Assembly (NCBI GenBank): GCA_964291265.2
Contig: OZ219746.1
Coordinates: forward strand, 32,001 to 96,000
Direction of reading: 5' to 3'
Origin: Alphaproteobacteria bacterium
GTDB lineage: Bacteria > Pseudomonadota > Alphaproteobacteria > SP197
DNA length: 64,000 bases
In this document: positions 2,294 to 63,014 of the stretch, in pieces
How the letters are laid out: each line of letters begins with the position of its first letter
Numbering within the stretch: the first letter of the stretch is position 1
Made by a program: the position numbers and the translations under genes
The notes under the pieces: generated by a model
The model's database searches: none
Seen by the model: the letters and a program-made list of their open reading frames with translations, nothing else
Told to the model about the DNA's origin: nothing

Positions 2294-2306
2294 TTGCTTT
2301 ACCTAT

Positions 2307-41300: not shown

Positions 41301-41482
41301 GCCTTCGGATCATCCAGCGTCTGCGCGTTCGCCGCGGCCGACCAGGTCAGGACCAGAGGAACCACGAGCCCGGCCAGCGCCGCACCGATGCCCGGGCGGA
41401 TCCCGGCGAGGCCGCTCCTCCGGGCGCACGACTCACGTCGGGGGTGATGGGTATCGGCTCGAGTTGAGGCAACGTTCGTCAT
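38303..41482 (-). CDS. Autotransporter with a passenger of four tandem 132-aa repeats
   Basis: Signal-like segment ending AANA-Q; C-terminal beta-barrel (FWGSGDW, GHLGAD, YGLPA...LTPYAG, terminal W). Confidence 0.88.
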   Translation of the reverse strand: MTNVASTRADTHHPRRESCARRSGLAGIRPGIGAALAGLVVPLVLTWSAAANAQTLDDPKAMRWWNVLTAEQMVAALHGDDATPAQETAAKKMYADLDAETKRLVNAAATLIYGDGGFTSVGAWWESLDCRKMRIAAGDGDTADPSSAYCAHYPGSGAAKILGDMQKAHVDKVGQALLGRSDPGVYPSDNAMAMRWWNVLTAEQMVAALHGDDATPAQETAAKKMYADLDAETKRLVNAAATLIYGDGGFTSVGAWWESLDCRKMRIAAGDGDTADPSSAYCAHYPGSGAAKILGDMQKAHVDKVGQALLGRSDPGVYPSDNAMAMRWWNVLTAEQMVAALHGDDATPTQETAAKKMYADLDAETKRLVNAAAALIYGDGGFTSVGAWWESLDCRKMRIAAGDGDTADPSSAYCAHYPGSGAAKILGDMQKAHVDKVGQALLGRSDPGVYPSDNAMAMRWWNVLTAEQMVAALHGDDTTPAQETAAKKMYADLDAETKRLVDAAAALIYGDGGFTSVGAWWESLDCRKMRIAAGDGDTADPSSAYCAHYPGSGAAKILGDMQKAHVDKVGQALLGRSDPGVYPPDGANGKIAKIAKTLLSESTRVTLASTVDAVRARIGAGLAGPSEMETSDAGMASRWLQAMDMHGPQFANDGFEAARMLAGSSFALPLNAEGGDASAVPGGAVFWGSGDWRELSGTSNGVSWDGRMTSGHLGADMRIRRNTIAGLSLSLSRGSFDYEEGSGATAHSGTYETDQVGVHPYAGVTLSSGVELWAMAGYGTGDVEIRDNHEGTQSGDLTQTSVAAGIQGELYASDSLIKGGRTTVDMGADGALARAEIEGSGSLASIRSDVELLRVSLEAGHVHTITENTVLTPSLQVAFRSDGGDGGTGTGLEIAGALGYLDTALDLTLEIRGRTLAGHSGETEEWGFGGLIRKGAGGNGHGLSLSLAPGLGVVDGGGGPSRWTALPPTGANDGSRNRHAAAPHLVTEVGYGLPALNGQGLLTPYAGFVLSEDRGRNYRAGVRLELGSSMVLGLETLRRERDAEGSPEHELMFRATLTW
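39734..41303 (-). repeat. Four near-identical 396-bp tandem repeats
   Basis: AMRWWNVLTAEQMVAALHGDD...LDCRKMRIAAGDG...YCAHYPGSG...GRSDPGVYP x4. Confidence 0.97.
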
Positions 41483-45025: not shown

Positions 45026-47215
45026 TCAACCCGACGTGATCAGCGTGCGGTAAAGACCGTCGGTTTCGATCAGTTCATCGTGCCGGCCTTCCTGGACAAC
45101 CCGGCCACCGTCGAGCACGACGATCCGGTCGGCGTCCCGGATCGTGCTGAGCCGATGGGCAATGATCAGGCAGGTGCAACCGCGCTGGCGGAGGTTGTCG
45201 TCAATCTCCATTTCGGTTGCAGGATCGAGTGCGGCGGTGGCTTCATCGAACACGATGATGTGCGGATCGGGCGCAAGCGCCCGCGCGATTTCAAGACGCT
45301 GGCGTTGACCGCCGCTCAAGTTTCGGCCGCCTTCCTCTATCGGCGCGTCGTACTTGTCCGGTCGCGCCATGATGTCGTCGAGAATGGCGGCATCGCGCAG
45401 GGCCTGGGCGACCCGACGGTTGCTGACGGTCGAGTTCCAGAGGGTGATGTTGTCCCGCACGCTTCCCTCGAACAGGACGATTTCCTGATCGACATAGGCG
45501 ACAGTCTCGGCGATGTGGCTCGGGGACAGGTCCTGCAGCCGGTCTGCATCGATGCGCACCGTACCGGACCAGGGATTGAGCAGGCCGCAAACCAGCTTGC
45601 CGACGGTCGACTTGCCGCTGCCGGAACCGCCGACAAGGGCAACCCGCTGGCCCGGATTGATCTCAAGGCTGAAATTCTCGATCAGCGGCGCCTCCTGCCG
45701 GTTGTAGCCGAAGGTGACATTGTCGAGCCTGACAAAACCCGAGCAGCGCGGACGTTCGCCCTCGTCGGACCGGCGCATGCCGCGAACGACCCGCCGATCC
45801 GGCCTGTAGTTCAACACGTCGTCGAGCCGGGCAATGTCGGCCTTGACTGTCTGCAGGCTGGCGCCGAACTGGATCAGACCCTCAATCGGCTGGGAGAAGC
45901 TGCGCGCAAGACTCTGAAAGGCAACCAGCCCGCCGACGGTCAGCACGCCCTCCAGGAGGCGCAGACCACCGACGCCCAGAATGGCAACGGTCGTCAGTGC
46001 CGTGAGCAGAGGCGGCACGACGTTCAGGAGGCTTGTCAACCGGCCGAGGTCCTGCTGGGCGGCCACGACGTTGGCATGCATGCCGGACAGGCGTGAGAAC
46101 AGGTCGCTCTCCGTGCCGTTGGCCTTCAGCGTTTCGATCATGCTGAGGCCGGCGACCGACGCACCCGCGACCTTGCCCTGTTCCTTGAGCAGGCGGCGGC
46201 TGGCATTCTCCCGGGCGCTTGAGACCACGCGAAGGGCGAACAGGTTGACGATCCCCATGGCGAACACGACGAGCGCCAGGATCATGTCGTAGGCCAGCAT
46301 GACGGCCGCATAGGCGATCATGGTGAGCATGTTGACGGCATTGGTGGCGAGCTCGCCTGAAACCACCCGCGCCACATTGTCGTTCGACGCGACCCGGTTG
46401 GCGATGTCGCCCGCAAAACGTTGCGAGAAGAATGCCATGGGCAGCGTCATGACATGCCAGAAGAATTGCGATGTCGCGACGAGCGAAAGCTTGGTTTCCA
46501 TACGCGCAAGACAGTGCTGCTGGAACCAGGTGAGCAGGCCTTGCAGGACGGTCACGAGTGCGAGGCCGATGAGAAGCGGTACAACGAGATTCTCGCTCCT
46601 CCCGACCAGGATCTCATCCACGAAGACCTTGGAGATGGTCGGCAGGGCAAGCCCTGGAACCAGCAGCGCGAGAGTCGCGAGGACAACGAACAGCAAGGCG
46701 GACCGCGCCCGGCCCAGACGAGCGAACAAGCCCTGCAGCAGACTCGGTCGCGCACCGCTTCGATCGAACTGCTGCGTCGGCTGGAAGGCGAGGCAGACCC
46801 CGGTGAACCCCTCGTCGAACTCCTGCATGGATATGCGGCGCGGGCCTTCGGCCGGATCGTTGATGTAGACGAGACCGCGCCGGATGCCCTCGAGCACGAT
46901 GAAATGGTTGAAATTCCAGAACACGATCATGGGGAAGGGAAGATCGAACAGGCGTCCCGGATCGCGGCGGAAGCCGCGCGCATCGAGGCCGAGTTCCCTG
47001 GCCGCCCGCAGCATGTTGACCGCCTTGCTGCCGTCGCGCGACACGCCGCAGCGCACCCGCAGTTCTTCCAGGGGCACCCACTTGCCGTAGCGGGCAAGAA
47101 TCATCGCCAGACAGGCGGCGCCGCATTCCGTCGCCTCCATCTGCAGGATGGTGGGTACGCTTCGCCTGCCGCCGCGCCTGCGGGAAAGGTTCGCTCGCAG
47201 CTTGGTGGAGTTCAC
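45026..47215 (-). CDS. NHLP bacteriocin system ABC transporter with C39 peptidase
   Basis: QMEATECGAACL, FWNFNHFIV, GGSGSGKST, LSGGQRQR. Confidence 0.95.
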   Translation of the reverse strand: MNSTKLRANLSRRRGGRRSVPTILQMEATECGAACLAMILARYGKWVPLEELRVRCGVSRDGSKAVNMLRAARELGLDARGFRRDPGRLFDLPFPMIVFWNFNHFIVLEGIRRGLVYINDPAEGPRRISMQEFDEGFTGVCLAFQPTQQFDRSGARPSLLQGLFARLGRARSALLFVVLATLALLVPGLALPTISKVFVDEILVGRSENLVVPLLIGLALVTVLQGLLTWFQQHCLARMETKLSLVATSQFFWHVMTLPMAFFSQRFAGDIANRVASNDNVARVVSGELATNAVNMLTMIAYAAVMLAYDMILALVVFAMGIVNLFALRVVSSARENASRRLLKEQGKVAGASVAGLSMIETLKANGTESDLFSRLSGMHANVVAAQQDLGRLTSLLNVVPPLLTALTTVAILGVGGLRLLEGVLTVGGLVAFQSLARSFSQPIEGLIQFGASLQTVKADIARLDDVLNYRPDRRVVRGMRRSDEGERPRCSGFVRLDNVTFGYNRQEAPLIENFSLEINPGQRVALVGGSGSGKSTVGKLVCGLLNPWSGTVRIDADRLQDLSPSHIAETVAYVDQEIVLFEGSVRDNITLWNSTVSNRRVAQALRDAAILDDIMARPDKYDAPIEEGGRNLSGGQRQRLEIARALAPDPHIIVFDEATAALDPATEMEIDDNLRQRGCTCLIIAHRLSTIRDADRIVVLDGGRVVQEGRHDELIETDGLYRTLITSG

Positions 47216-48462
47216 TGTCCGGTCAGCTTCTTCAGCAGCGGAATGGCCATGGCGATGGGGCGCTGGCTCGTGACCTTGACATCGATGCTGGCGAGCGTTC
47301 CGGAGATCAGCGCCTCACTTGCTCCCTTCGTCGTGGTCCAGGCGAAACCGCTCGCCGTCGATGGATCGGGCAGCAGCGTCACGCGGCTGGCGTATGGCGG
47401 CCCGTTCTGGGAGAAGATCTGGGCAAGCTCCTGATTCTGCAACACGGTGACCATGCCGCTGACGCTTACCGGAAACTCCGACACGTTCTCGACCAGACCC
47501 TTGACAAAGCCATGCGTCTGCGGCTGCGTGGTCGCAGGAGAGACCAACACCTTCATTCCCGGCTCGACCCGTTTGCCATCGGCCGGTGGAATGTACATCA
47601 GCACCTCGACTTCTTCGTTCGAGCCGGTCTTGATGCTGAGCACGGGCTGGCCCGAAACGAGCACCGAACCCAGGGCGGCCTTGATCTCGATGACACCGCC
47701 GGAAACCGGCGCCAGGATCTGTTGCGACTGCAGACGTGTCTGGAGTTCACGAGCCCGCAGGCGCGCCTCCTGAAGACGGGTGTCGGCACTGCCGACCTGG
47801 ACGCGGTGATCGTTGAGGCGCGTCAACTCCCGCGCTTCCAGCGTCTCGAGCCGGTGAGTGGTTTCGAACAACTCCTGCAGTGCGCGGTCAAACGCCTGCT
47901 GGCTGCGCTCCAGGGTAACCCTTGTGACGACGCGTTCATCGTAGAGCTGGCGGTGGCTGTCGAGGCGTTCACGGGCGCTGTGCACTGCCTCGCGGCCAAT
48001 GCTCTCGAGCTGTTCAAGGCGAGCCTGCTGCTTGGCCACGTTGTTCTTGAACAACTGATCCTCTGCTTCGAACGCTGCCTTGAGATTGTCCAGGGCCCGT
48101 TCGCTCTCTTCAACCAAGGCGAGAGCGCTGCGGTAGCGTTCCGTCAGATCTGGATTCACGGTCGTGGCAACGACCTCTCCCTTGTCAACCGATTCACCGA
48201 CCGTGAAGGCGATATCGGTCAGCGTGCCCGTATCGACGGCCACGGCGTCAATCACCGTGCCACCGGTGTTCAGCAGTATTCCGTTGGCACTCACATAGGT
48301 GGAAACGGATCCCCACACCGACCAGGCCACCAGCGCGGCGACGAATGCCATCAAGGCGCACAGCGCCACCCATTGCCTGGCCGAAACGATCGAAAGTGCA
48401 CGATCGATCTTCTCCGGTTCGGACAGCCGGTCCAGCGCTGCCTTTCTGAACAGTTCCGCCAT
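47212..48462 (-). CDS. NHLP bacteriocin system secretion protein (HlyD family)
   Basis: LFRKAALDRLSEPEKID, single TM, coiled coil, SGFAWTT. Confidence 0.92.
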   Translation of the reverse strand: MAELFRKAALDRLSEPEKIDRALSIVSARQWVALCALMAFVAALVAWSVWGSVSTYVSANGILLNTGGTVIDAVAVDTGTLTDIAFTVGESVDKGEVVATTVNPDLTERYRSALALVEESERALDNLKAAFEAEDQLFKNNVAKQQARLEQLESIGREAVHSARERLDSHRQLYDERVVTRVTLERSQQAFDRALQELFETTHRLETLEARELTRLNDHRVQVGSADTRLQEARLRARELQTRLQSQQILAPVSGGVIEIKAALGSVLVSGQPVLSIKTGSNEEVEVLMYIPPADGKRVEPGMKVLVSPATTQPQTHGFVKGLVENVSEFPVSVSGMVTVLQNQELAQIFSQNGPPYASRVTLLPDPSTASGFAWTTTKGASEALISGTLASIDVKVTSQRPIAMAIPLLKKLTGQ

Positions 48463-48535: not shown

Positions 48536-50059
48536 TCATCTGGTTGAGAGGATCCCGGGAGCGAGCTTCCACTTCACCTCGCGGGCCTCGCGGGCGAGAT
48601 CCGGCACACCGGCAATCCCGAGTCTCCGCGAGGTCAGCGCACCCACCGCTTCCAGCAGGCGATAGGCCTCGACGGTCACGTCGCGTTCAGCCGAAAGCGC
48701 GCTGATCTGGCGCGTCACGACACGCCGTTCGGCATCCAGAATCTCCCGGGTCGTGCGCTCTCCGAACTCGGCCTCGCGCTTGATCCCTGCCAGGGCGGTG
48801 CGTGATGCCTCGACTGCGGTCGCAAAGGCCGCCTGCCTCTGCCGGGCCGCTTCCAGGTTCCGCCAGGCGCTTTCGACCAGTTGCGAGGCACTGCGCACCG
48901 CATCGAGCCATTCGTTGCGGCGCTGGGCCTGAAGATGTCGGGCTCGGCGAATCCGCGGACCTGTCACCCCCGCCTGATAGATCGGCACGGTCAGCTGCAG
49001 CGTCAGGCTCATTTCGGTACTGTCCGGAAGAGCCGTTCCTGTCTGTCTCTTGGCCGCAGCCCTGAGGTCGACGCGCGGTCCGAGCTCGGCCGTGGCCACG
49101 AGAACCGACGCCTCGGCCACGCGAATCGCGGTTTCGGCGGCGCGAACGGCGGGCCGCTGCGTGCGGGCTGTCCGGTGTGCTTCCTCCAGGGTTCGCGGCA
49201 GGCCGGCCGGCAGGCCTGCCGCCTCGAGACCGTCCGGCACCAGGCCGGTCAACTGGAGAAGGCGGGCTCTGTGGACGTTCAGTTCGCTCGTCGCCGCCAC
49301 CATGTCCGCTGCGGCGATCTCCCGTTCCGCCTCGGCCTGGGCGACATCGGCGCCGGTCCGGTCCCCGACATCGTATTGCGCCTTGACGTCGCGAACCTGC
49401 TCATCGAAGGCGGCAAGGGAGGCTGCGCGCAACTCCACGACCCGTTCCGCCCGGAGCGTGTCGAGATAGACTGTCGCGGCGCGAAGAAGAACGGTCTGTT
49501 CGCTGTCTTCCACGGAGGCGTGGCTCCTTGACACGCTCTGGACAGCCCTTCGGAGCGCAGCGGAGTCGCGGCCGCTGCGAAACAGGTTCTGCGTGATGGA
49601 GAATGTCCAGGAGCGCGGAGAAGAATACTGGGTTCGGTCAGCACCCAGGGAAAAGGACCGATCGGAGACGATCCGTTGCCGACCGGCGCTGGCGTTGAAC
49701 TGGAGCGTGGGCAGCCATGCCGAAACGGCCTCGGGCACATCCTGGTGGCGCGCGCGCGCAGCCTCGCGGACCGCGGCCAGACCCGGGTTCGACGCCGCGG
49801 CCGCGGCCAGCACCTCCTCGATGGTCAGCGCCGAGGCCGGCGCTGCGGTGAGCGCAAGGGCAGTGCCGAGCCAGGCAAGGCACGAACGAGCGATGCGCCA
49901 TCGCAAGGGCATGGTCCTGCAACCAGGCCGCGTGCGTCTGCGGCGCCCCTGGCGGCGGCCCGAGGCTTCCATCGGGCATGCTTGCCGTCGGGCAATTCTC
50001 AGCCATCCCCCGTGCAGCGGCCGGGCCGGACCGCTTTCCGCCATTGCCGTTCGGTTCAT
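48536..50059 (-). CDS. TolC-family outer membrane channel (start uncertain, 50059 or 49912)
   Basis: Signal peptide APASA-L, SNPGL..R, WLPTL, TVPIYQAG, GERTTREILDAE. Confidence 0.88.
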   Translation of the reverse strand: MNRTAMAESGPARPLHGGWLRIARRQACPMEASGRRQGRRRRTRPGCRTMPLRWRIARSCLAWLGTALALTAAPASALTIEEVLAAAAASNPGLAAVREAARARHQDVPEAVSAWLPTLQFNASAGRQRIVSDRSFSLGADRTQYSSPRSWTFSITQNLFRSGRDSAALRRAVQSVSRSHASVEDSEQTVLLRAATVYLDTLRAERVVELRAASLAAFDEQVRDVKAQYDVGDRTGADVAQAEAEREIAAADMVAATSELNVHRARLLQLTGLVPDGLEAAGLPAGLPRTLEEAHRTARTQRPAVRAAETAIRVAEASVLVATAELGPRVDLRAAAKRQTGTALPDSTEMSLTLQLTVPIYQAGVTGPRIRRARHLQAQRRNEWLDAVRSASQLVESAWRNLEAARQRQAAFATAVEASRTALAGIKREAEFGERTTREILDAERRVVTRQISALSAERDVTVEAYRLLEAVGALTSRRLGIAGVPDLAREAREVKWKLAPGILSTR

Positions 50060-52356
50060 ATGAAGACCGCCACCGGGTTGAGATCGGCTTCGGCCTTGGG
50101 CGTTTCTCGCCACCCCATGGCAACCGGCACGTCGTACAGGCGGCCGGGAGCAAAACGCGGCCAGAAGTGACGCAATCCCGGCACGATGGTCCGGGCGACC
50201 GGCATACCGATATCCGGCCGGGTCTGGTCGAGCACCAGAAACTCCATGCCCCTCGCCTCAACCAGCGCCTGACAATACTCGACGTCATCCTTGATGTCGG
50301 TTGTCTGCGGCGCCGAATAGTCCCGGGCCAGACGTTGCCGCATCCGTTTGTCCGGCGCAAGATAGGGATGCTCGGCAAGTGTTGCATTGCGCCACCACCA
50401 GAGGCATTCCGGATCGTCATAGAGGTAGCCGTTGCCGTCGATGCCGACATCTCGAACGGCGACCAGATACTGGTTCAATTCGCACAGTGCACGGAAGGCG
50501 GCAATGCGTGGTTCGAAATGGGCGCCGGCCGAATACAGGATGTCTTCGGCCTCCTTGTCAGTCCGGCGCGACACCGCAACGAATACCGGGATACCGAGAT
50601 CGGTGGTCGCATCAAGCATTCGCAGATCGCGGTGGAAGGACTTGTAGTATTCGCGCGCGCGGTCGAAATAGGCTTCGCCGAAGCTGTCGAAGTCCAGCTC
50701 GGGAAGCGATACCCGATTGTACCACCAGCAGGCAAAGGCATCGCGCTCGACCAGCTCGAAAAATCCCTGGAGAATCGCCTCCTCCAGCGTGTTGCCTGAC
50801 GCGCAGCCGTTCGAATCCGGACCGCAATAGATCTGGCCGTCCTCCAGCGGTGCGGCGAAATAGAGCATGGAGGTGGGCAGGTGGCGGTGACACCCCCGAG
50901 TCATCGACCAGACCGGTGTCCAGCTCATCTCCACGGCAGGATCGAAACGCCTCGGGACAAAATTGAATCGCGCTCTGCGCGCGTTGATCTCTTCGGCGTG
51001 GTCGTACTGCCAGTCGCTGAAGAGCTGGACCGTGTTGGGATGGATCGCTTCGCCGTCGGCGAAATCCTCAAGGCGCGCGCGGCGGCGGATCTCGTCGCCG
51101 TGAAAGGCGCCGGAAACGCGCTCGATCGCCTCGCACAAAGCGCTCGCTTCGGCCTGTTCGGGACTGGCGCCCTTGCCCGAACTCTTGCTCCTCAGCGTGG
51201 TGCGCAGCAGGCGCAGGTTGTCGCTCCTCAGCGCTATGTTGCTGCCGGACCAGTAGACATGCAGCCACGGGTCCGTTTCGTTCGTGGAACGCACCAGTTG
51301 GGTGACCACGCCGCTCACCGGGCTGACCAGGTGACGGTAACGGGCAATCGTCTCCCGCGGTGGCACCGAACGCGAGCCGCCGGAATTGGCCACCGTTCGG
51401 GGGCATGGTGCGAGCGTGACTGGAACCGGCGCCCGGTCGGGGCGGTAGAGCGCCGCGTCGCCACAGACCCCGCATTGCGGTCGGCGGAACACCCGATGCC
51501 GGTCGTTTTCGAGACTGTGGGCATCGACCGAGATCGCGTGCTCATGGAGCGCCGCCCTCTCCCCGAAGACGATCCATCTGGCAATCTCGACCGCGGCGAG
51601 ACCGAGGATTGCCTCGACAAGCGGTGCTGGCGCGACTCGGCGCAGGACAGCGCCCCCCCCGCCGGTGCGCAGGAAACTCTCGATTTCGCGATTGCTGCGC
51701 AGACGATGGGCCAGACAGGCCCAGCACGGTCCGCCGTCGCCAGGCCGGAAAACCGGACCGAAAAGCGCCGTCAGGCCGTTGGGCGCCACCGGCAGCCACG
51801 GAAGTCCGGATGCCAGGTGACGGCGGTTGGCCTCGGCGCAGTCCTCACCGAGCAGGTCGTCGCACAGGATGACCGAGAGGGTCGGATTGTCGTCGGTCAC
51901 GGTGACGCCCATCGCAGCAAGCGCGGCACCGAGACCGTCGCCCGTCACCGCAACCCGCACGGCGTCCAGCCGTGTCTCCGCCCAGCGTGGCGACGCGCCG
52001 CACGCACTCCAGAAGGCAGCCATGTCCCGGCTGATCGTGGCGTCTGCTGAGACAACGTAGCCCTTCGACGCCAGCGAGACCAGCGCGGTCTGGACTTCGA
52101 TCGCCGAATACCGGTCGGCCAGCGCCGCGGCGATTTCGTGGCGCGAGTGGCTGCCGTCAAGCAGGGGCAGGATATCGATGTAGCGCCGGCCGTGGAGAAC
52201 TCCGCTGAACACCTCGGACACGATCAGCGCGGTCGTGTCGTCGTGAAGGCGAACATCGAGATGCGGCGCCAGCATCGGCCGCTCGACAAGGCCGCGGTCG
52301 TCCGCCAGACTGCACAGGATGGCCATTGACGGGGGAGTGACCGAATCGGCGGCCAT
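50056..52356 (-). CDS. Fused leader-binding/E1-like-YcaO cyclodehydratase 2
   Basis: GPVF..CWACL, CGVC, SSGKG, EAIER, SNGCASGNTLEEAILQGFFELVERDA, C-terminus LNPVAVFI. Confidence 0.93.
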   Translation of the reverse strand: MAADSVTPPSMAILCSLADDRGLVERPMLAPHLDVRLHDDTTALIVSEVFSGVLHGRRYIDILPLLDGSHSRHEIAAALADRYSAIEVQTALVSLASKGYVVSADATISRDMAAFWSACGASPRWAETRLDAVRVAVTGDGLGAALAAMGVTVTDDNPTLSVILCDDLLGEDCAEANRRHLASGLPWLPVAPNGLTALFGPVFRPGDGGPCWACLAHRLRSNREIESFLRTGGGGAVLRRVAPAPLVEAILGLAAVEIARWIVFGERAALHEHAISVDAHSLENDRHRVFRRPQCGVCGDAALYRPDRAPVPVTLAPCPRTVANSGGSRSVPPRETIARYRHLVSPVSGVVTQLVRSTNETDPWLHVYWSGSNIALRSDNLRLLRTTLRSKSSGKGASPEQAEASALCEAIERVSGAFHGDEIRRRARLEDFADGEAIHPNTVQLFSDWQYDHAEEINARRARFNFVPRRFDPAVEMSWTPVWSMTRGCHRHLPTSMLYFAAPLEDGQIYCGPDSNGCASGNTLEEAILQGFFELVERDAFACWWYNRVSLPELDFDSFGEAYFDRAREYYKSFHRDLRMLDATTDLGIPVFVAVSRRTDKEAEDILYSAGAHFEPRIAAFRALCELNQYLVAVRDVGIDGNGYLYDDPECLWWWRNATLAEHPYLAPDKRMRQRLARDYSAPQTTDIKDDVEYCQALVEARGMEFLVLDQTRPDIGMPVARTIVPGLRHFWPRFAPGRLYDVPVAMGWRETPKAEADLNPVAVFI

Positions 52357-52357
52357 C

Positions 52358-53764
52358 TCAATTCGCCTGTCCGCTGTCCTTCGGAGGACCGCCGAGGATG
52401 AAGTCGCCGACCGTACCCTCGATCACCGGATCCAGGCCGGTCACCCGCGCGAAACGCGCCGAGTTCCCCGTACCGAGGCCGCACGGAGAAAGACCGAGAT
52501 CCGTCGCCACGAGATACAGGGTCTGGTAAAGTGCGCCCACATTGCGCAGAATCACGCCATAGGCGATCGATCGGTACTTCCACATGACCCTGGCGAAACG
52601 GGCGCTGAACGCCAGCACGATCTGAGGGTTGGCGAGGTGTCCCGTCGCCACTCTGGCATCCTCCACGATCGCCTCCACCTCGGTCGTGCGCCCGGCGATC
52701 GCGACCAGTTCATGGGTCGCTGCGTCGTAGTGGTACAGGCCGGACTCCAGGCCGTCACAGCGATCGACCACCGGATAGATCTCGAGTTCGTAGCTGGCGC
52801 CGCCTGAGGGATAAGGCCGTCTCGTGACTTCAACATCGTAGGACGGCCCCGCGGGATCGCCGACCGGGACCGCAAAGCGTTCGAGAATCCGCGCGGCGCG
52901 GTCGAGCAGCGCGCCGAGGTCCGCCAGGGAGATCGGACGGGCTTCGTCATAGACCCTCTCCGATCGGCGCCGTTCGAGAATCCGGACGAGCGACTCTCCT
53001 CCGGCGTCCTCCGGCGCAACCGGCAACGCGGTCCGCCGGCCAGGCCAGGGGGGACGGACGCCAGGCGGCGGATCGACCTGGCCGACGAACGGGAAGATTC
53101 CGCCGATCGGATCACCATGCCAGCCCGGCCGATGATGCCAATGATACAGCAGGTCATGAAACTCCCACTGCATCAAGGCCTCGCTGCGCGGGTCGCCTGC
53201 CGCACCCCCGGTCTCCAGAAAGCCCTCGGCGGCCAGGGCCCGTCGGATGACAGGGACCTCGAGGCGGCTCGGATCGGAGAGGCGGAAGCGTGTGCCGGCC
53301 AGCGGAGATTCCAGTATCCAGTCCCGCCCGGAACGGCGCAGGCAGGCAAAGCGGTCGAGGTTGGCCTCCGGCGGCGGCATGTCCTCCGCCAGGCGGGGGG
53401 CATGGCCGTCCCACTGCGGCTGCATCACTGCCTGTTCGCCCGTCTCGTCGATCACGAGCAGTTCCATCCCCCGGAACCGATAGAGGGTCTGCAGGGCGAC
53501 AAGATAGGAGGCTGCGCACGACGGCCCGCCGGCCTCGATGACCGCGTCGCGGAGTTCGCTCAGCGGGGCGCCGGCGCGAAGCATCGTGTTGGCCGTCCCA
53601 TAGGCCCGCGCGTAGGGCGCGAAAGGCGGTCCGATCCCCAGCACCGAGTCCTCGACGACAAGGGACCTGCCGTCCGCAGACGCTGCCAGCTTTCGCCCGG
53701 CGGGCAGGCGGGCGAGGATCGCGGGCTCCCCGAGCAGATCGAAAAATCCCATCCGTCCCTCCAA
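52358..53764 (-). CDS. SagB/ThcOx-type FMN azoline dehydrogenase
   Basis: WEFHDLLYH, RRRSER, RPYPSGGA.YELE, WKY catalytic motif. Confidence 0.93.
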   Translation of the reverse strand: MEGRMGFFDLLGEPAILARLPAGRKLAASADGRSLVVEDSVLGIGPPFAPYARAYGTANTMLRAGAPLSELRDAVIEAGGPSCAASYLVALQTLYRFRGMELLVIDETGEQAVMQPQWDGHAPRLAEDMPPPEANLDRFACLRRSGRDWILESPLAGTRFRLSDPSRLEVPVIRRALAAEGFLETGGAAGDPRSEALMQWEFHDLLYHWHHRPGWHGDPIGGIFPFVGQVDPPPGVRPPWPGRRTALPVAPEDAGGESLVRILERRRSERVYDEARPISLADLGALLDRAARILERFAVPVGDPAGPSYDVEVTRRPYPSGGASYELEIYPVVDRCDGLESGLYHYDAATHELVAIAGRTTEVEAIVEDARVATGHLANPQIVLAFSARFARVMWKYRSIAYGVILRNVGALYQTLYLVATDLGLSPCGLGTGNSARFARVTGLDPVIEGTVGDFILGGPPKDSGQAN

Positions 53765-56080
53765 TCAGACGAACACTGCGACGGGGTTCAGATCGGCTTC
53801 CGCGGTCGGCTCGGCAAGCCATCCCATCTTGATCGGCACGTCATAGAGACGCCCCGGAGCGAACCGCGCCCAGAAATGCCTCATGCCCGGCACGATGGTG
53901 CGGGCGACCGGCATGCCGATATCCGGCCGGGTCTGGTCGAGGACCAGGAATTCCATGCCGAGGTCCTCGACCAGTGACCGACAATGCTCGACATCCTCGC
54001 GCGTATCGGTGGTCCGGGGAGCGCGATAGTGCTCCACGCTTCGCTCGGGCAGGGCGGAGTCCGGCACCAGGTAGGGATGCTCTCTCACGCGGGCATTCTT
54101 CCACCACCACAGGCTCTCGGGGTCGTCGAAGAGATAGCCGGTGCCGTCGGCCTTCACGTCCCGGACTGCGGTCAACTGCTGGTTCAGTTCGCACACGGCC
54201 CTCATGCCCGCGATACCGGGGTCCAGGTGGGCGCCGGCGGCAAACACGATATCCTCCTGGTCCTTGTCCGTTCGACGCGATACCGCAGCGAACACCGGAA
54301 TGCCGATATCGTGGGTCACGTCGATCATCCAGAGATCGCGGTTGCAGGCGGCGTAGTAGTCGCGCGCTTCCGCAAGGTAGGCGTCGCCGAAACTGTCGAG
54401 CGCCACCGCGGGACGCCGGAGTCGGTTGTACCACCAGCAAGCGAAGGCATCACGCTCCACCAGTTCCAGGAATCCCTGCAGGATGGCCTCCTCCAGGGTG
54501 TTGCCGGCCGCACAGCCGTTGGTGTCCGGGCCGAAGAACGGCTCGTCATGTTCCTGCGGCATGGAGAAATAGAGCATCCCGGTGGGCAGGTAGCGATGGC
54601 ATTCCTGCGTTAACGACCAGACCGGGGACCAGCTCATCTCAACGGTCGTGTCGAAACGTGCCGGAACATAGGCGAACTTCCGTTGCAGGGCATTGAGTTC
54701 CGCGGCGTTGTCGTATTGCCGGTCGCTGTAGTGCAGAACCGTTTCCGGGTGGATGGCTTCGCCATTGCGAAAATCCACGAAGCGGGTCCGGCGGCGGATT
54801 TCGTCGCCGCGGTAAGCGCCGGAATGCCGCTCGATGGCTTCGCACAGCGCGCTCGCTTCGGCCTGTTCTCGCGTGCTTCCCTTGCCGGAGTTAAGGGAGC
54901 GGATGCTGGTGCGCAACGCCAGCAGGCTGCGCGCCTGCATCGCGAGGTTGGCGCCGGCCACATTGACATGCAGCCAGGAATCCCGCTCGTCGGTGATGCG
55001 CAGCAACCGATTCACCGCCCCGGTGACCGGACTGACGAGGTGACGGTAGCGGCGCAGGGTGTCCTGCGGCGGCACGGAGCGAAAACCGCCGCTGGTGCGT
55101 ACCGGTTTCGGGCTGGGGGCGAGACGCAGCGGCGAAGCCGGCCGGTCCACGCGGTACAGCGCCGGGTCGCCGCAGGACCGGCACTGCGGCCGCCGCGTGA
55201 CCGGATGGATGGTGGTCCTCATGCCGAGTGCTTCCAGTGCCATGGTATGGCGGTGGAGCGTGGCGCTGTCCCCGAAGACGACCCATTTGGCAAGTTCCAG
55301 GGCCGCCAGCCCGATCACGACGTCGGACAGACTGTCCGGCGTATTCGCGGGGAACGCGAACCCGGCCGGGAGGCCGCGCAGATAGCTTGCGATCTCGACA
55401 TTGCTGCCGATCCGGCTCGCCAGACAGGTCCAGCACGGCGCGTCCTGCTCAGCAGGGCGGAACACCGGGCCAAAGAGGCAAAAGACGCCCACGGGCTTGA
55501 CCAGAGCCCAGGGGATGCCTGACTCGAGATGCCGGCGGTTGGTCCGCGCATGAGCATCGTCCAGGTAATCGTCCGTGACGACGACCGACAGCGTCGGCCT
55601 GTCCGGCCCAACGGTCAGCCCGAGGTCTGCGAGCGCCGCGCCGAGCCGCCCGTCGTCTCCGAAGAGGGCAATCCGGGCGGCGCCGAGACGCCGTTCGGCC
55701 CATCTCGGCGTGGCCCCCTGCGAACACCAGAACGCGGCGGACACCCTGTCCATGGCGAAGTCGGCCGAGACGACGCAACCCTTGGCTGCAAGCGAAACCA
55801 TGGCGGTCTGAACGCGCAGCGCCGAATGCCGCTCCGACAGTTCGGCGACGATCTCGCGGCGGGTATGCCCGCTCTCGAGCAGAGGCGCGAGGTCGCGATA
55901 CAACTCTCCGGCCAAGAGGATGCTCGCGGTCTCGGACGCCAGGATAAGGGCCCCGTCCTCCGAAACGCGGGAAGCAAGATGGGGTGCGAGCAACGGCCTT
56001 TCGATGATGCCACGGTCGCATTCGGTGAACCGTTGCGGCGGCGCGAATATCGGTTTCCACCCCGTTCGGTCGACAGACAC
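53765..56080 (-). CDS. Fused leader-binding/E1-like-YcaO cyclodehydratase 1
   Basis: GPVF..CWTCL, CRSC, NSGKG, EAIER, TNGCAAGNTLEEAILQGFLELVERDA, C-terminus LNPVAVFV. Confidence 0.93.
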   Translation of the reverse strand: MSVDRTGWKPIFAPPQRFTECDRGIIERPLLAPHLASRVSEDGALILASETASILLAGELYRDLAPLLESGHTRREIVAELSERHSALRVQTAMVSLAAKGCVVSADFAMDRVSAAFWCSQGATPRWAERRLGAARIALFGDDGRLGAALADLGLTVGPDRPTLSVVVTDDYLDDAHARTNRRHLESGIPWALVKPVGVFCLFGPVFRPAEQDAPCWTCLASRIGSNVEIASYLRGLPAGFAFPANTPDSLSDVVIGLAALELAKWVVFGDSATLHRHTMALEALGMRTTIHPVTRRPQCRSCGDPALYRVDRPASPLRLAPSPKPVRTSGGFRSVPPQDTLRRYRHLVSPVTGAVNRLLRITDERDSWLHVNVAGANLAMQARSLLALRTSIRSLNSGKGSTREQAEASALCEAIERHSGAYRGDEIRRRTRFVDFRNGEAIHPETVLHYSDRQYDNAAELNALQRKFAYVPARFDTTVEMSWSPVWSLTQECHRYLPTGMLYFSMPQEHDEPFFGPDTNGCAAGNTLEEAILQGFLELVERDAFACWWYNRLRRPAVALDSFGDAYLAEARDYYAACNRDLWMIDVTHDIGIPVFAAVSRRTDKDQEDIVFAAGAHLDPGIAGMRAVCELNQQLTAVRDVKADGTGYLFDDPESLWWWKNARVREHPYLVPDSALPERSVEHYRAPRTTDTREDVEHCRSLVEDLGMEFLVLDQTRPDIGMPVARTIVPGMRHFWARFAPGRLYDVPIKMGWLAEPTAEADLNPVAVFV

Positions 56081-56153: not shown

Positions 56154-56441
56154 TCATTCATCCTTGCGCGCCACGACATCCCGGTAGGTCGAAGGCGCCG
56201 GCAAGAGGATATGGACGCGGTCATGGGTGTTGAAGACCAGCTTGACCTTGGCCCCTTCCGGGAAATCGAAACCCTCGGACCTGAGGACGGCGGTCGGGTC
56301 GGCGTCCATCTTCGCCTTGAAGTCGGGGTCGCCGTAGTACTTCGCCACCACGTCTGCATAGAGTTGCTGACGTTCCTTCAGGTCCCCCGACGAAAGAAGG
56401 TCGGTGACCAGGGCGTCGATCGGCTTCAGTGGTTTTTCCAC
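56154..56441 (-). CDS. Nitrile-hydratase-leader-like protein lacking a GG site and core
   Basis: VVAKYYGDPDFKAKMDADPTAVL...KVKLVFNTHDRVHILLP; GGAGGAG RBS before the GTG. Confidence 0.75.
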   Translation of the reverse strand: MEKPLKPIDALVTDLLSSGDLKERQQLYADVVAKYYGDPDFKAKMDADPTAVLRSEGFDFPEGAKVKLVFNTHDRVHILLPAPSTYRDVVARKDE

Positions 56442-56487: not shown

Positions 56488-56907
56488 CTAGCTGGCGCTG
56501 CCCGCGGTGCCCGCCGTGCCCGCCGTGGAAAACGAACTGAAGAAGGTACTGGTCTGGAAGGTACTCGCCGAGCTGACGCTGCCCGCGCTGCCAGCCGTGG
56601 CGCCACCCGACACCGCGCTCAGGCTCTCGTCAGCCAGGTCCATGTTCGGGTCGGGCGGCAAGATGAAATGCACGACCTCATCGGTGTTCGCGACCACGTC
56701 GACCTGCATGCCGACGACGGGAACGTCGAAACCGAAGGCCTTGTACACCTCGGTGCCGCTGGCTTCATCGATCGAGGAGCGGAACTCCTCGTCGCTCCGG
56801 TACCGGTCGGCGGTCTCGAGGAATCGCTCGTAGCTCTTCGTATATGTCCCCATGGCCATCGGCGACATGTCGATGTTGTCGAGAAAGTCATTGCTTGGGA
56901 CGTTCAT
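56488..56907 (-). CDS. NHLP-leader RiPP precursor B (core ATAGSAGSVSSASTFQTSTFFSSFSTAGTAGTAGSAS)
   Basis: DEEFR...VVANTDEVVHFILPPDP..DLADESLSAVSGG double-Gly site; AAGGAG RBS. Confidence 0.92.
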   Translation of the reverse strand: MNVPSNDFLDNIDMSPMAMGTYTKSYERFLETADRYRSDEEFRSSIDEASGTEVYKAFGFDVPVVGMQVDVVANTDEVVHFILPPDPNMDLADESLSAVSGGATAGSAGSVSSASTFQTSTFFSSFSTAGTAGTAGSAS

Positions 56908-56982: not shown

Positions 56983-57372
56983 TCAACCAGCCGAACCCGC
57001 CGATCCGGCGGTGGATGCACTGCCGAGGCTGGAAAAGGACGTGAAGCAGAGGAAGGTGCTCGCCGATCCGACAGTGCCGGCCGTGCTGGCCGTGCTGCCG
57101 CCGGAAATCTGGCTCAACTGCTCATCCGCCAGATCGCTGTTGGGATCGGGCGGCATGACGAAGTGCGTCACCTCGTCGGAATCCATGAGAAACCGATAAT
57201 CCACTCCCTCCAGGCGTGTCATCCCGAACTCGTCGAAGACATCGTCGTTGTCGCCGCGGTCAATCCGGTCACGGAAAGCCGCATCGGTGTGGTAGCGGTC
57301 GGAAATGGCGACGACGAGATCACGGCGATCATCGTTCATTTCCACTTCCTGCATGAACTGCTGGCTGTTCAT
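56983..57372 (-). CDS. NHLP-leader RiPP precursor A (core STASTAGTVGSASTFLCFTSFSSLGSASTAGSAGSAG)
   Basis: DAAFR...DSDEVTHFVMPPDP..DLADEQLSQISGG double-Gly site. Confidence 0.92.
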   Translation of the reverse strand: MNSQQFMQEVEMNDDRRDLVVAISDRYHTDAAFRDRIDRGDNDDVFDEFGMTRLEGVDYRFLMDSDEVTHFVMPPDPNSDLADEQLSQISGGSTASTAGTVGSASTFLCFTSFSSLGSASTAGSAGSAG

Positions 57373-57638
57373 CAGCTTGCTCCGTGAAGGTTGCAGGACG
57401 GCAGATTATCCCCTGTTGTATGCTTGTGCAAGGGACGTTCGGACACATTCGACGATGTCGTGGCGGATCACGGTGACAGGGGTTCGACCGTGGCGGCGGC
57501 CCGGGGCATGGCTCGGTGTCTTCGTCGTTCCGCAGATACGGCCCGATCCTTCTGTCCGCCGGGACATTGACATTACACTGCGCCACGCTGGATGGCTGAC
57601 CCCGATTGGCCCTTTCACAGGAAGGCTCAAGCAGGCTT

Positions 57639-60149
57639 ATGGACCTCGACATTCTCATCGCCCGGGCGTCGCCGCCGCCGGAGCGCGGCGGCGACGGGCC
57701 GTTCGTCATGGCCCCCACCGACCCCGACTCCCGGTCTCGCCGCGAAGGAAGGCTTCTCGACGCCTTCGGCTCGCGGCAGGCGCTGGCCCGACATGCCGAG
57801 GGGCTGGGGTTGTCCGTGGGCGCCTATCTGGCGAGATTCGGCGATGTCCGCCTGGAGGGTCCCGCGCCGGACTGGGGTTGCGCCTTGCGGGAGATCCTCG
57901 CCCGGCTGGCTGATACCGAGTCGCCATTCTCGGCCGTCTATCCGTGGGCCCGCGGCCGCATCGAGGCGGAATGGCCCGGTGGCCTGCCGCACGGCGCCGG
58001 CGCGCTGGACGGGGCGGTGTCCCATCTCGAATGGCGTTTCCGCGCGATCCTGATGCAGACCATGCGGTATGAGGCCAGGTTGGGGGCGTCGCGCGTGACC
58101 TGGGCGGCGCGGTTCGCCCGCAGTCCGGCGCTGGCCTACGCGCTCGGCCGCACGCTGGCCGACTGGCGTGCGGACCTCGTTCGGATGCTGCGCCATGCAG
58201 CCGAAGACCGGGCCGAACTGTCCCGGCGCTTCTTCGACGGTAGAGATCCCGGGCTGCTGGTCGGTATCGAGCAGGGACTCGGCGATCCGCATGCCGGAGG
58301 GCGGTCGGTCGCAATCCTGCGCTTCGCCAACGGTTCGGTCGTTTTCAAGCCCAAGGACCTGCGAATCGCCGGCGTCATGCGGGAGATCGTCGGCCTGATC
58401 TCCAGCGTCGAGCTTTCGCCGCCCTCCACGGTGCCGCGTGCGGGCTATGCCTGGGAAAGGGAGTACGCGCCGCAGCCGGTCGCCGCCGCCGCGGATGCCG
58501 ACCGTTTCTATCGGGCGCTCGGCGGCTGGCTTGCCTTGCTCCAGGCCATGAACGCGAGCGATTTCTGGTTCGACAACCTGATCGCCGACGGCGCCACGCC
58601 GCGGTTCGTTGATTTCGAAACGGTCCTGCAGCCGGCCTCGGCATGGCCGCCCCGGATACGGCGCCTGGTCGATGAGGAAGCGATCAGCTTCAACATGCGA
58701 GTGGCCAGCGTCGGCATCCTGCCGCTTCTAATGTCGATCAGGGAGGGTCTGGAACCGACCGACCTCGGGTGCCTCTGCCAACCGGGGGAGCACCGCACGC
58801 CGATGGGTGCCGCAGAGAATGGCGGTCTGTTTGTGTGGCAGGAAGAGCGATATGCCCCGCGCTACGAGTCCGGCGACTTCGCGGACAGCGCGGCGCATTT
58901 CGACGCCCTCGAGGACGGCTATCTCCGGGTCGCCCGGGAGCTGGGGTCGGCGGCGACGCAGGAGCGAATCCTGGCGGCGCTCGAAAATGTGCCGGACGCG
59001 CAGCTTCGCGTCCTCCTGATCGACACCTGGACCTGCTATCGGATCGTTCAGGAATCCCTCCTTCCCGGCACCCTGTCAGACGGTGTTTGGCGCGAGATCG
59101 TCTTGCACAAGATGCTGCCCCGCCACGCCGAGCTGACCGGCCCTCTCCGCGAGGCGGCGGTGCGCGACATGCGCCGCCTCGACATCCCGCTGTTCCTGAC
59201 CGCGCCGGCCTCTCGGGACCTTCTGGGGGTGGAGGGTGAGGCGTGGCGGAACGTGTTCAGGAAGGATGCCATTGCCACCTTGCGCGGCGCATTCGGCACC
59301 ATGTCTGCAGCCACCGAACGGGAACGGCTGGCGTGGCTGCGTTCGTCGTTTTCCCTGCGCGCAGCCAATCCGCCTCGGCAGACCCCGGAGCGCGGCCGGC
59401 CGGCGCCGGCAAGGCCGGAGGATCTTCTGGCCTGGGCAGATCAGATCGCGAGCGACGTTCGGGATCTCGCCGTGACGAACGTGTGCGGATATCCGACCTG
59501 GGTCGGCATTGTGCACGAGGTTCACTTCGGAAGACGTTGCATGGCGCCGCTCCCCATCGACATCCTGTCGGGCCGCGCAGGAATCGCTCAGGCGTTGCTT
59601 GAGCTGAGCGACAGGCTCGGTCGTGCGGACCTGGCGGACCTCGCGTGCGAGACCCTGAGGGGGGCGGCGCGCGATTATGCCGAGGCCATGGACTTCAGCC
59701 AGGATCTGGGAGTCGGATATGCTGTCGGTGCCGGCGGACTCCTGCACATGCTGGTGTGCGAGCCCTCTCTGCGGGACGAAGCGCAGATGGTCTACCGAAG
59801 CGCTGCGGAAAAGGAAGCATGGATGCAGTCCGGGAGCGACTTCGTGTCCGGCCTCGCTGGTTGGAAGGACGCGGTTCTGACCCTCGGCGGCAGGGTTCCG
59901 GAGCGGCACGGCCGACAGCGGCCTTATGCGCCCTCGGCCCTGCCTCGACTCGCTCCCTGGCTGGACCCCGGACAGGCGAAGCCGGTCTGCGCCGACCGGC
60001 GGGCGGCAGCGCTCATGAGGCGGGATCGTGATCGACTGGGAAGCTGGTTCGCCGAGAGATGGGCCGATGATCGACACGATCTCTCGGGGGTGGATGGGAC
60101 CCCCGCGCTCGCCGTCGCCTTCGCGCGTCTGGCGGATGGCCCGGCTTAG
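57639..60149 (+). CDS. LanM-like protein (DUF4135 dehydratase/kinase domain + truncated LanC-like domain)
   Basis: GLGDPHAGGRSV, VFKPKDL, SDFWFDNL, VDFET, DIPLF, DILSGRAGIA; no WCHG/CHG Zn motifs. Confidence 0.85.
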   Translation: MDLDILIARASPPPERGGDGPFVMAPTDPDSRSRREGRLLDAFGSRQALARHAEGLGLSVGAYLARFGDVRLEGPAPDWGCALREILARLADTESPFSAVYPWARGRIEAEWPGGLPHGAGALDGAVSHLEWRFRAILMQTMRYEARLGASRVTWAARFARSPALAYALGRTLADWRADLVRMLRHAAEDRAELSRRFFDGRDPGLLVGIEQGLGDPHAGGRSVAILRFANGSVVFKPKDLRIAGVMREIVGLISSVELSPPSTVPRAGYAWEREYAPQPVAAAADADRFYRALGGWLALLQAMNASDFWFDNLIADGATPRFVDFETVLQPASAWPPRIRRLVDEEAISFNMRVASVGILPLLMSIREGLEPTDLGCLCQPGEHRTPMGAAENGGLFVWQEERYAPRYESGDFADSAAHFDALEDGYLRVARELGSAATQERILAALENVPDAQLRVLLIDTWTCYRIVQESLLPGTLSDGVWREIVLHKMLPRHAELTGPLREAAVRDMRRLDIPLFLTAPASRDLLGVEGEAWRNVFRKDAIATLRGAFGTMSAATERERLAWLRSSFSLRAANPPRQTPERGRPAPARPEDLLAWADQIASDVRDLAVTNVCGYPTWVGIVHEVHFGRRCMAPLPIDILSGRAGIAQALLELSDRLGRADLADLACETLRGAARDYAEAMDFSQDLGVGYAVGAGGLLHMLVCEPSLRDEAQMVYRSAAEKEAWMQSGSDFVSGLAGWKDAVLTLGGRVPERHGRQRPYAPSALPRLAPWLDPGQAKPVCADRRAAALMRRDRDRLGSWFAERWADDRHDLSGVDGTPALAVAFARLADGPA

Positions 60150-61412: not shown

Positions 61413-63014
61413 ATGAGCCGCCGCCGTCTTCCGATCGGGATCCAGGACTTTCCGACGATTCGCAGCGAGGATTTCTACTACGTCGACAAGACTTCGCTCG
61501 TCCGGCGTCTTGTGAACGAGGGGCGCCACTACTTCCTGTCGCGTCCGCGCCGCTTCGGCAAGAGCCTGCTGCTCGACACCTTGGGATCGCTGTTTGCCTG
61601 CCACGAACCCCTGTTCCGGGGACTCGCCATCCACCCCCACTGGGACTGGTCCTCGCCGCATCCGGTGGTACGGCTGAGCTTCGGCGGGAAGTACAACGAA
61701 CCCGGGGACATCGAGCGCAACATCCTGACCCAACTCGAACTGGTCGAACGCCATGCCGGGCTCCCGCCCGCTGCCTGCAGGGCCGGACCGGAACGCCTTC
61801 TCGACATCCTCGACCGCCTGCACGGCGCCACCGGCCGGCAGGTGGTGGTGCTGGTGGACGAGTACGACAAGCCGGTCCTCGACATGCTTCACGATCCCGG
61901 GCTTGCGAGGGCGAACCGGGACTACCTGCGCGGCTTCTACGGCATCGTCAAGGACAGCGCCGAACACGTCCGCTTCGTCTTCGTTACTGGTGTCAGCATG
62001 TTCTCCAAGGCCAGTGTGTTCTCAGGCCTCAACAACCTGAAGGACATCAGCCTCGATCCGCGCTTCGCCACGATCTGCGGCTACCGCGAGGAGGATCTCG
62101 ACCGTGTGTTCGGGCCTGAGCTTGTCGGACTGGACCGCGAGAAGGTCCGCACCTGGTACAACGGCTACCACTGGCGGGGCGGGGAGCGGGTCTACAATCC
62201 CTGGGATGTGCTCCTGTTCCTGCGGAACCGCGAGTTCCGTCCCTACTGGTTCGAGACCGGATCGCCGGACTTCCTGTTCCGCATGCTGATGGAGAAGTCG
62301 GTGAGCCCGATGGAGCTGGAGGGGCGGCTGGCGGGCACGTCCCTGGTCTCGAAGTTCGATGTCGACGACATCGCCATCGAGGCGCTGCTCTTCCAGACCG
62401 GCTACCTGACCATCGCGGGGGAGGAGAAGCAGGGCCACAGGACCCTCTACCGGCTGGACTATCCCAACCTCGAGGTCCGGCTCAGCCTCAACGACGAACT
62501 GCTTGCCTGGCTGGGCAGGCAGGGGGTCGAGCCGCTGGAGCGGGGCCGCGAGTTCTGCGCCCTGCTTGAGGCGAACGACTTCGCCGGCTTCGGCGAGAAG
62601 CTTCGCGCCTGGCTTGCGGGCATTCCCTACCAGTGGCACGCGAAGGGCGACCTGGCGCGCTACGAGGCCTGGTATGCGAGCCTTCTCTACATGTGCCTGC
62701 GTTCGGTCGGGGTGGACTTCGACGTGGAGGAGGCCTCGCACCGCGGCCGTGCGGACATGGTGGTGCGCCTCGGCGGTCAGGTCTTCGTGCTGGAGTTCAA
62801 GATGGCCGAGGGCGAGGGGGACGGCGCTGCGGCGCTGGATGCGGCGCTGGCGCAGATGCGCGAGCGTGGCTATGCCGAGACCTGCCGCGACCACGGCGGC
62901 CCGGTCCACCTCGTCGGCGTGGCCTGCGGACGCGAGGCGCGCAACCTCCTCGACATCCGCGCCGAGACCTGCATGAGCGACGCCCGCGAACGCCTGCCTG
63001 ACACCACGAAGTGA
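61413..63014 (+). CDS. AAA-ATPase-like + PD-(D/E)XK nuclease protein, copy 2
   Basis: Same motifs as 35805-37370 and a closely similar sequence. Confidence 0.92.
   Translation: MSRRRLPIGIQDFPTIRSEDFYYVDKTSLVRRLVNEGRHYFLSRPRRFGKSLLLDTLGSLFACHEPLFRGLAIHPHWDWSSPHPVVRLSFGGKYNEPGDIERNILTQLELVERHAGLPPAACRAGPERLLDILDRLHGATGRQVVVLVDEYDKPVLDMLHDPGLARANRDYLRGFYGIVKDSAEHVRFVFVTGVSMFSKASVFSGLNNLKDISLDPRFATICGYREEDLDRVFGPELVGLDREKVRTWYNGYHWRGGERVYNPWDVLLFLRNREFRPYWFETGSPDFLFRMLMEKSVSPMELEGRLAGTSLVSKFDVDDIAIEALLFQTGYLTIAGEEKQGHRTLYRLDYPNLEVRLSLNDELLAWLGRQGVEPLERGREFCALLEANDFAGFGEKLRAWLAGIPYQWHAKGDLARYEAWYASLLYMCLRSVGVDFDVEEASHRGRADMVVRLGGQVFVLEFKMAEGEGDGAAALDAALAQMRERGYAETCRDHGGPVHLVGVACGREARNLLDIRAETCMSDARERLPDTTK

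Follow-up and report, generated by a model that had tools for sequence, protein, structure and literature searches.

A LanM-like gene with a compact, zinc-free cyclase-like domain probably encodes an azole-dependent dehydratase of the LanMbC lineage

The subject of this study is a LanM-like gene at positions 57639-60149, plus strand, of a 64,000-nucleotide stretch of DNA from an alphaproteobacterium (assembly GCA_964291265.2, contig OZ219746.1, positions 32,001 to 96,000), which is referred to as the window. Judging from sequence comparisons, we consider it probable that the gene encodes a shortened member (hereafter short form) of the LanMbC lineage of dehydratases, which would dehydrate Ser in an azole-dependent manner and give rise to a linear dehydroalanine (Dha)-azole product without lanthionine. 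The enzyme class itself is not new, since the dehydrazole class with its LanMbC enzymes was described in 2023; new here are the compact C-terminal domain, which is the main feature, and an NHLP-like protein without a core. A preliminary description of the gene had proposed a LanM-like enzyme that probably makes no lanthionine and that acts as a Ser/Thr kinase, as a dehydratase only, or as a scaffold, and of these three options it is the dehydratase that our analysis supports.

The point of reference is CcaM, the enzyme of the carnazolamide cluster of Chryseobacterium carnipullorum, in which a DUF4135 domain is fused to a zinc-free cyclase-like domain and which is encoded together with an NHLP precursor, a YcaO protein and a dehydrogenase (PMC10676384; this and the other publications cited are drawn on in excerpt). 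In vitro, CcaM dehydrates only Ser residues preceding an azole, does not need the leader and forms no lanthionine, and its activity is lost upon removal of the C-terminal domain, even though no ring is formed (PMC10676384).

Results

Reading frame and active-site residues

The gene is one uninterrupted open reading frame (ORF) of 836 amino acids (aa) plus stop codon, in agreement with the intact frame noted earlier; an alternative in-frame TTG start at 57606 would extend the protein by 11 aa.

57639-60149, plus strand: putative LanMbC-type dehydratase, short form, 836 aa; DUF4135 kinase/elimination domain followed by a zinc-free, internally deleted LanC-like domain

The DUF4135 domain spans residues 163-521 (Pfam; E 1e-60; 205.9 bits with a cut-off of 29) and represents the sole DUF4135 match of the whole genome. 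The match to the Pfam model LANC_like is weak and below threshold (residues 637-742; 19.5 bits, cut-off 23.2), and the score of the LanM model TIGR03897 is likewise under its cut-off (255 versus 304 bits). The sequence motifs were found as originally read, with KPK as part of FKPK (K237), DFWFDN at 308-313, DFET at 325-328 and RVLLIDT at 457-463. A promoter scan gave 0 sigma-70 sites and four terminator-like sites, with 2.3 expected, and is uninformative.

The protein search yielded 113 matches among 7997 scored candidates, and the family size given here is a lower bound. The matches comprise 85 full-length short-form proteins including the query (45-100% identity, 822-912 aa), six partial sequences (P0086-P0091), which were left out of the alignment, and 22 weaker matches, mostly longer LanMs with 26-30% identity. 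We compared the resulting 85-row alignment with the lanthionine synthetase CylM, in which K274, D347, H349, N352 and D364 are required for phosphorylation and D252, H254, R506 and T512 for elimination (PMC4550811). The short form keeps eight of these nine residues defined by mutagenesis, including all four elimination residues, whose equivalents are D216, H218 and R457 (85/85 each) and T463 (84/85, with one Ser); the phosphorylation residues are represented by K237 (84/85) and by D308, N313 and D325 (85/85 each). The only residue of the nine that is changed is H349, which is replaced by W310 in 85/85 orthologues, while 18 of 19 canonical LanMs have His at this position (3 of 22 canonical matches were left out of this comparison). 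In CylM, modification by the H349A variant was still nearly complete after 10 h in vitro, whereas with T512A elimination never occurred (PMC4550811). Since W310 and the neighbouring D312 are found in 85/85 proteins and D462 in 84/85, the substitutions are not due to chance or drift.

The second deviating motif, RVLLIDT in place of RxxxRxT, is altered to a lesser extent than had been assumed. Alignment to the CylM sequence of the PDB entry pairs R457 with R506 and T463 with T512, so that the catalytic Arg and Thr are spared and only the middle Arg (CylM R510) is lost. This alignment rules out a loss of the elimination residues.

Kinship with CcaM

CcaM itself (WP_073335633.1, P0281 in our set) was recovered by our search from a cca-like locus and a listing of cluster members. 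It carries W363 at the position of CylM H349 and an R523...D528-T529-W530 motif, and the combined DxW and DTW pattern is identical in CcaM and in the protein of the window. The His-to-Trp exchange marks the LanMbC lineage rather than a broken or repurposed LanM. The non-standard chemistry that had been postulated would not be new either, since CcaM has the same His-to-Trp exchange and DTW and is active in vitro. Among 102 further proteins, the WCxG and CHG zinc motifs were absent from every protein of the Trp type.

A profile built from the short-form family scored CcaM with 317 bits, compared to 114-232 bits for eight canonical LanMs. In a tree of the dehydratase domain with 29 rows taken from the protein sequence search, five short forms and 12 Trp-type proteins including CcaM were separated from 12 canonical LanMs by a branch with 100/100 support, the root being placed by midpoint only and compositional differences being flagged. 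Forcing the short forms to group with the canonical LanMs was rejected by the approximately unbiased (AU) test (p-AU 0.008), which rules out a canonical LanM ancestry. In addition, three metagenome loci (L025, L028, L030) contain cca-like clusters, the core positions of which agree with PMC10676384. The main-text excerpt of PMC10676384 contains no statement of the DxW/DTW signature, and no description of the short form was found in the literature searched, with most subscription journals lying outside its coverage.

Precursor cores and predicted products

Two NHLP precursors with Ser/Thr/Cys-rich cores, in which Ser stands before cyclisable residues, are encoded next to the dehydratase gene:

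56983-57372, minus strand: NHLP precursor 1, 129 aa; core of 37 aa after Gly-Gly with one Cys; TIGR03793 E 1e-6, below cut-off
56488-56907, minus strand: NHLP precursor 2, 139 aa; core of 37 aa without Cys; TIGR03793 E 4e-10, below cut-off

The two cores thus hold one and no Cys, as counted before. Core 1 has Ser, Thr or Cys at 12 of 12 every-third positions, a pattern matched by 3 of 40000 shuffles, and core 2 has Ser or Thr at 11 of 12 (34 of 40000 shuffles). Across 15 cores from the window and six further loci (omitting one L004 precursor and the L017 precursor), 12 showed a periodicity matched by at most 60 of 40000 shuffles, although the cores are mutually related and hence do not represent independent tests. 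Within these cores, 14 of 17 Cys residues lie in the putative azole register, and 56 of 73 off-register Ser residues directly precede an in-register Ser, Thr or Cys. The residue before the azole position (n = 186) is Gly in 77, Ser in 63 and Thr in 13 cases, and Ala, Phe, Val and Leu predominate at the position after it. The single Cys of precursor 1 is replaced by Thr in the orthologues of L003, L006 and L007, which fits a heterocycle site and not a thioether donor. Upstream of its dehydratase gene, locus L003 has precursor 1 once more (L003:7319-7637), matching in two pieces as if frameshifted.

Based on these data, the pathway might proceed as follows. The two YcaO proteins and the SagB-type oxidase of the cluster would convert every third Ser, Thr or Cys into an oxazole or thiazole, as the enzyme families and the core pattern suggest. 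The short form would then phosphorylate the Ser before each azole and eliminate the phosphate in the same site, a reaction that has been shown for CcaM and that is predicted here from the shared residues. The zinc-free LanC-like remnant would serve as a structural or substrate-binding part, as in CcaM, and the C39-ABC/HlyD/TolC system would finally cut at Gly-Gly and export the product. When the CcaM rule is applied, the upper bounds are 12 azoles and five Dha for precursor 1, with one dehydrobutyrine (Dhb) being possible, and 11 azoles and four Dha for precursor 2. The candidate Ser residues are 1, 4, 13, 22 and 28 of core 1 and 10, 13, 22 and 25 of core 2.

The enzyme could instead be an azole-independent dehydratase that modifies one or few Ser/Thr residues regardless of azoles, in analogy to PoyF and AerF, two LanM domains without cyclase, which act on NHLP precursors by dehydrating the first Thr of the core (PMC9259500 supplement). 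This precedent concerns the same type of precursor, core 1 begins with Ser, and all dehydration residues but one are retained. Nevertheless, we consider this very unlikely, because the short form groups with CcaM and not with canonical LanMs (in a tree without PoyF), keeps a C-terminal domain with the CcaM motif, and is accompanied by cores whose Ser-azole triplet layout agrees with the CcaM rule.

The shortened LanC-like domain

Following the linker, the short form has 266 residues, compared to 375-387 in two CcaM-type proteins and 364-457 in 12 aligned canonical LanMs. A deletion at about residue 785/786 has removed the stretch with the WCxG and CHG zinc motifs, whereas the motif of the last helix is retained, so that the LanC-like part is indeed short and devoid of zinc ligands, as had been described. 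Among the orthologues, WCxG occurs in 0/85 and C[HC]G within the last 250 aa in 2/85. The C-terminal motif WF..W..D.H.LS is common to the short form and CcaM (47% identity over 49 aa).

An AlphaFold model of the 836-aa protein (predicted local distance difference test score, pLDDT, 93.6) has its best structural matches in LicM2 (Z 24.9, root-mean-square deviation (rmsd) 5.5, 674 aligned residues) and CylM (Z 22.7, rmsd 7.3, 727 aligned residues). Residues 579-835 match the LanC-like protein GCR2 (Z 11.6, rmsd 4.4), and only 225 pairs span GCR2 residues 4-401, as expected for an internal deletion. From the structural match, the absent zinc motifs and the shared C-terminal motif we conclude that a fused LanC-like domain without zinc ligands is present, and not the Cys/Cys/His zinc site in a full cyclase barrel that characterizes a LanM. 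The deletion of the zinc region, the absent zinc motifs and the Cys-poor cores together support the earlier view that lanthionine is probably not formed.

Three residues of the small domain, H757 (83/85), C784 (80/85) and H813 (83/85), are conserved in the short forms (window about 59907-60077); according to the alignment, C784 marks the junction of the deletion and is not matched by a Cys in CcaM. One could envisage that these residues form a rebuilt, non-canonical metal or thiol site that still makes a thioether, all the more as nostatin A carries one Cys-to-Dha thioether, which is possibly spontaneous according to its authors (PMC11583998). Yet the canonical zinc region is deleted, the motif containing H813 also occurs in CcaM, which does not cyclise, precursor 2 lacks Cys and the Cys of precursor 1 alternates with Thr across orthologues, which leaves this explanation highly improbable.

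Distribution and selection

The short form was found in seven genome loci, whose metagenome-assembled genomes (MAGs) are titled Alphaproteobacteria, Paracoccaceae, Ca. Porisulfidus, Vicinamibacteria, Ca. Marinacidobacterium and Binatia. NHLP, YcaO and SagB genes lie within 10 kb of the dehydratase gene in six of the seven loci; in the seventh (G401) the cluster begins 13.5 kb off on the same contig. The second YcaO gene of G401 is split by a frameshift (L048:9323-11615; L001), reflecting either decay or an assembly error.

In the genus to which the window belongs, 22 genomes gave no short form and two of them weak matches to 1085-aa frames, and 400 sampled genomes of the phylum gave five matches, one long form of the Trp type (G063) and four canonical-looking LanMs. 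This patchy presence, together with a DNA identity of 82-90% between the window and three other MAGs, points to a horizontal spread of the short-form cluster. The MAGs carrying such clusters are presumably sponge symbionts. For sponge microbiomes, NHLP/YcaO/LanC clusters receive a general mention in the excerpts of PMC9426513 and PMC12426817, and the cores of the sponge srp clusters (LCCCW core, brominase; bioRxiv 2023.06.09.544420, in excerpt) do not match those studied here.

The ratio of nonsynonymous to synonymous substitution rates (dN/dS) between the window and five orthologues (Nei-Gojobori) amounts to 0.16-0.34 over the full gene and to 0.20-0.32 over residues 590-832, so that decay can be excluded for both domains. 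The check proposed in the preliminary description, namely whether the substitutions are conserved in orthologues, thus had a clear outcome, as they are fixed or nearly fixed in 85 proteins without relaxed selection. That the gene encodes a catalytically dead scaffold or is decaying might be suspected from the two motifs that deviate from canonical LanMs and from relative G401 with its frameshifted YcaO and displaced dehydratase gene. We give hardly any credence to this possibility, since 85 proteins with identities as low as 45% show little or no variation at the residues for ATP, metal and elimination, and the Trp change is present in the active enzyme CcaM; together with the dN/dS ratios, the invariant residues rule out a decaying gene.

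Gene cluster

The dehydratase gene is divergent from a minus-strand cluster, in which the two precursor genes are followed by azole and export genes:

56154-56441, minus strand: core-less NHLP-like protein, 95 aa; kept in related clusters
53765-56080, minus strand: fused E1-like/YcaO cyclodehydratase A, 771 aa; TIGR03604 and TIGR03882 above cut-off
52358-53764, minus strand: SagB/ThcOx-type azoline dehydrogenase, 468 aa; TIGR03605 above cut-off
50056-52356, minus strand: fused E1-like/YcaO cyclodehydratase B, 766 aa; 60% identical to A
48536-50113, minus strand: TolC-family outer membrane channel; the ORF finder probably placed the start too far upstream
47212-48462, minus strand: HlyD adaptor of the NHLP system; TIGR03794 above cut-off
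45026-47215, minus strand: NHLP ABC exporter with C39 peptidase, likely to cut the leader at Gly-Gly; TIGR03796 above cut-off
42088-45021, minus strand: second NHLP ABC exporter subunit; TIGR03797 above cut-off

YcaO A and B both retain the motifs that were compared against a CcaB-like YcaO, and they may share the work on the two precursors between them. Loci L005, L006 and L007 show one YcaO within the fetched DNA. The long-form Trp-type clusters of L019 and L022 have a second, distant YcaO, L019 additionally containing a B12-dependent radical S-adenosylmethionine (SAM) gene and an S8 protease. Scanning of the window cluster genes with Pfam and TIGRFAM profiles revealed no radical-SAM enzyme or epimerase, methyltransferase or S8 protease. 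A cluster of an uncultured Ca. Thioglobus, in which two YcaO/dehydrogenase pairs are combined with one LanMbC and several precursors, has been reported (PMC10676384); its layout resembles that of the window cluster, and short-form relatives may already be part of that dataset.

The central motif of the core-less NHLP-like protein is strongly conserved in ten aligned copies (41-89% identity). The gene was found with short-form clusters and with genome G063, and it gave no match at E 1e-8 in the cca-like loci; the excerpt of PMC12455567 makes no mention of core-less NHLPs. The idea that this protein replaces the deleted part of the barrel is weakened by G063, which has the core-less gene together with a C-terminal part of 363 aa.

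Compared to locus L003, where the same strand carries the dehydratase gene upstream of the precursors, the gene of the window is inverted. Contigs from two runs of one study (X1 and X2) contain the joint 57383-60134 on opposite strands, and hence both gene orientations occur.

Further features of the window include an AAA-ATPase-like/PD-(D/E)XK protein flanking the cluster (61413-63014, plus strand), of which about a dozen similar genomic copies exist, and, just past the exporter genes, an ORF of 1059 aa (38303-41482, minus strand) with a weak rhodanese-type match and at least seven partial paralogues on contig C2. Window positions 2001-6000 have a guanine-cytosine content of 0.47-0.52, compared to about 0.65 elsewhere, which suggests acquired DNA.

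Discussion

Several points weigh against the assignment as an azole-dependent dehydratase. The identity to CcaM is low (25% over residues 6-673), and the tree kept the motif columns, with the groups being assigned by motif. The middle Arg stands at its canonical position in 0/85 short forms, whereas CcaM and 51 of 67 Trp-type proteins retain it; 49 of the 85 short forms have an Arg one residue before this position, which the window protein lacks. About 110 C-terminal residues are missing relative to CcaM-type proteins, whereas CcaM needs its fused C-terminal domain, and the activity may therefore differ from that of CcaM. On the substrate side, 3 of the 15 cores are without significant periodicity, and Gly (77/186) is commoner than Ser (63) before the azole position, so that many triplets would offer no substrate. 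Finally, the dehydration activity of the phospeptin kinase EmbM was once mispredicted from sequence alone (PMC9259500).

The same paper describes a wild-type LanM domain that acts as a kinase only, and the short form might similarly be kinase-biased, phosphorylating Ser/Thr next to azoles and eliminating poorly, which would result in a phosphorylated azole peptide. Both the loss of the middle Arg and the shortening of a domain needed by CcaM would be in line with this. However, the residue pattern speaks for a different situation than in EmbM, in which the H349 equivalent is present, H254 is missing and T512 is replaced by Ser (PMC9259500 supplement), while the short form retains H218 in 85/85 and T463 in 84/85 proteins; the combined loss of H254/T512 and of the cyclase domain that characterizes EmbM is not seen here. 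Moreover, the middle Arg is not among the four tested elimination residues of CylM, and 16 of the 67 long Trp-type proteins are without it as well. The Ser/Thr kinase of the preliminary description is thus disfavoured by the four retained elimination residues, and a kinase bias appears quite unlikely to us. The scaffold is disfavoured too, since the residues for ATP and metal vary little or not at all.

The loss of the middle Arg and of part of the barrel, the conserved His/Cys/His set and the core-less NHLP partner could also be taken to indicate a diverged LanMbC branch, which stops at phosphorylation or carries out a new reaction. Such enzymes would make triplet peptides of phosphoserine and azole, and gene transfer would have distributed them among uncultured bacteria belonging to several phyla. 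We regard this scenario as unlikely and favour azole-dependent dehydration by the short form.

The DxW and DTW motifs may provide a sequence signature for azole-dependent dehydratases, raising the question whether the Trp reads the azole, and at least 85 natural proteins without about 110 C-terminal residues may show which part of the CcaM-type domain is dispensable. Nostatin A, to which the predicted products are similar, is cytostatic at nanomolar concentrations (PMC11583998), but carnazolamide was inactive in its tests (PMC10676384), and bioactivity should therefore not be assumed.

Comparison with known systems

Among the known enzymes, CcaM shares with the short form the DUF4135 domain fused to a zinc-free LanC-like domain, the His-to-Trp exchange at DxH, DTW at the elimination motif, the WF..W..D.H.LS motif, an NHLP precursor, a YcaO and a dehydrogenase, cores with Ser before azole positions, and the same side of the tree. 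It differs in length (1015 versus 836 aa), in the zinc-site region, which is degenerate in CcaM and deleted in the short form, and in the middle Arg, which CcaM has kept. Compared to the CcaM cluster, that of the window has two YcaOs, C39-ABC/HlyD/TolC export and a core-less NHLP gene, is without a radical-SAM epimerase, methyltransferase or S8 protease among the genes scanned, and encodes Gly-rich cores of 37 aa with 0-1 Cys.

Nostatin A is a proteusin built of the same Dha/Dhb-azole-X triplets, and its cluster includes a YcaO, an oxidase and the LanM-like gene NstG, which is proposed for dehydration (PMC11583998) and is likened to the short form here by its description only. It differs by radical-SAM tailoring, a modified Pro, the thioether and its cyanobacterial origin. 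CylM and LicM2 have the same overall fold and eight of the nine tested dehydratase residues in common with the short form, which, in contrast to them, has no zinc ligands, a shorter barrel and DxW instead of DxH, stays below the TIGR03897 cut-off and would act on substrates without conserved Cys. Like the short form, EmbM has a LanM-type kinase domain acting on a Cys-poor core of a peptide that is synthesized ribosomally and modified post-translationally, but it has no cyclase domain, is the sole maturase and shows the opposite residue pattern at H349, H254 and T512 (PMC9259500). From PoyF and AerF the short form is set apart, as far as their published description goes, by its LanC-like remnant of about 250 aa.

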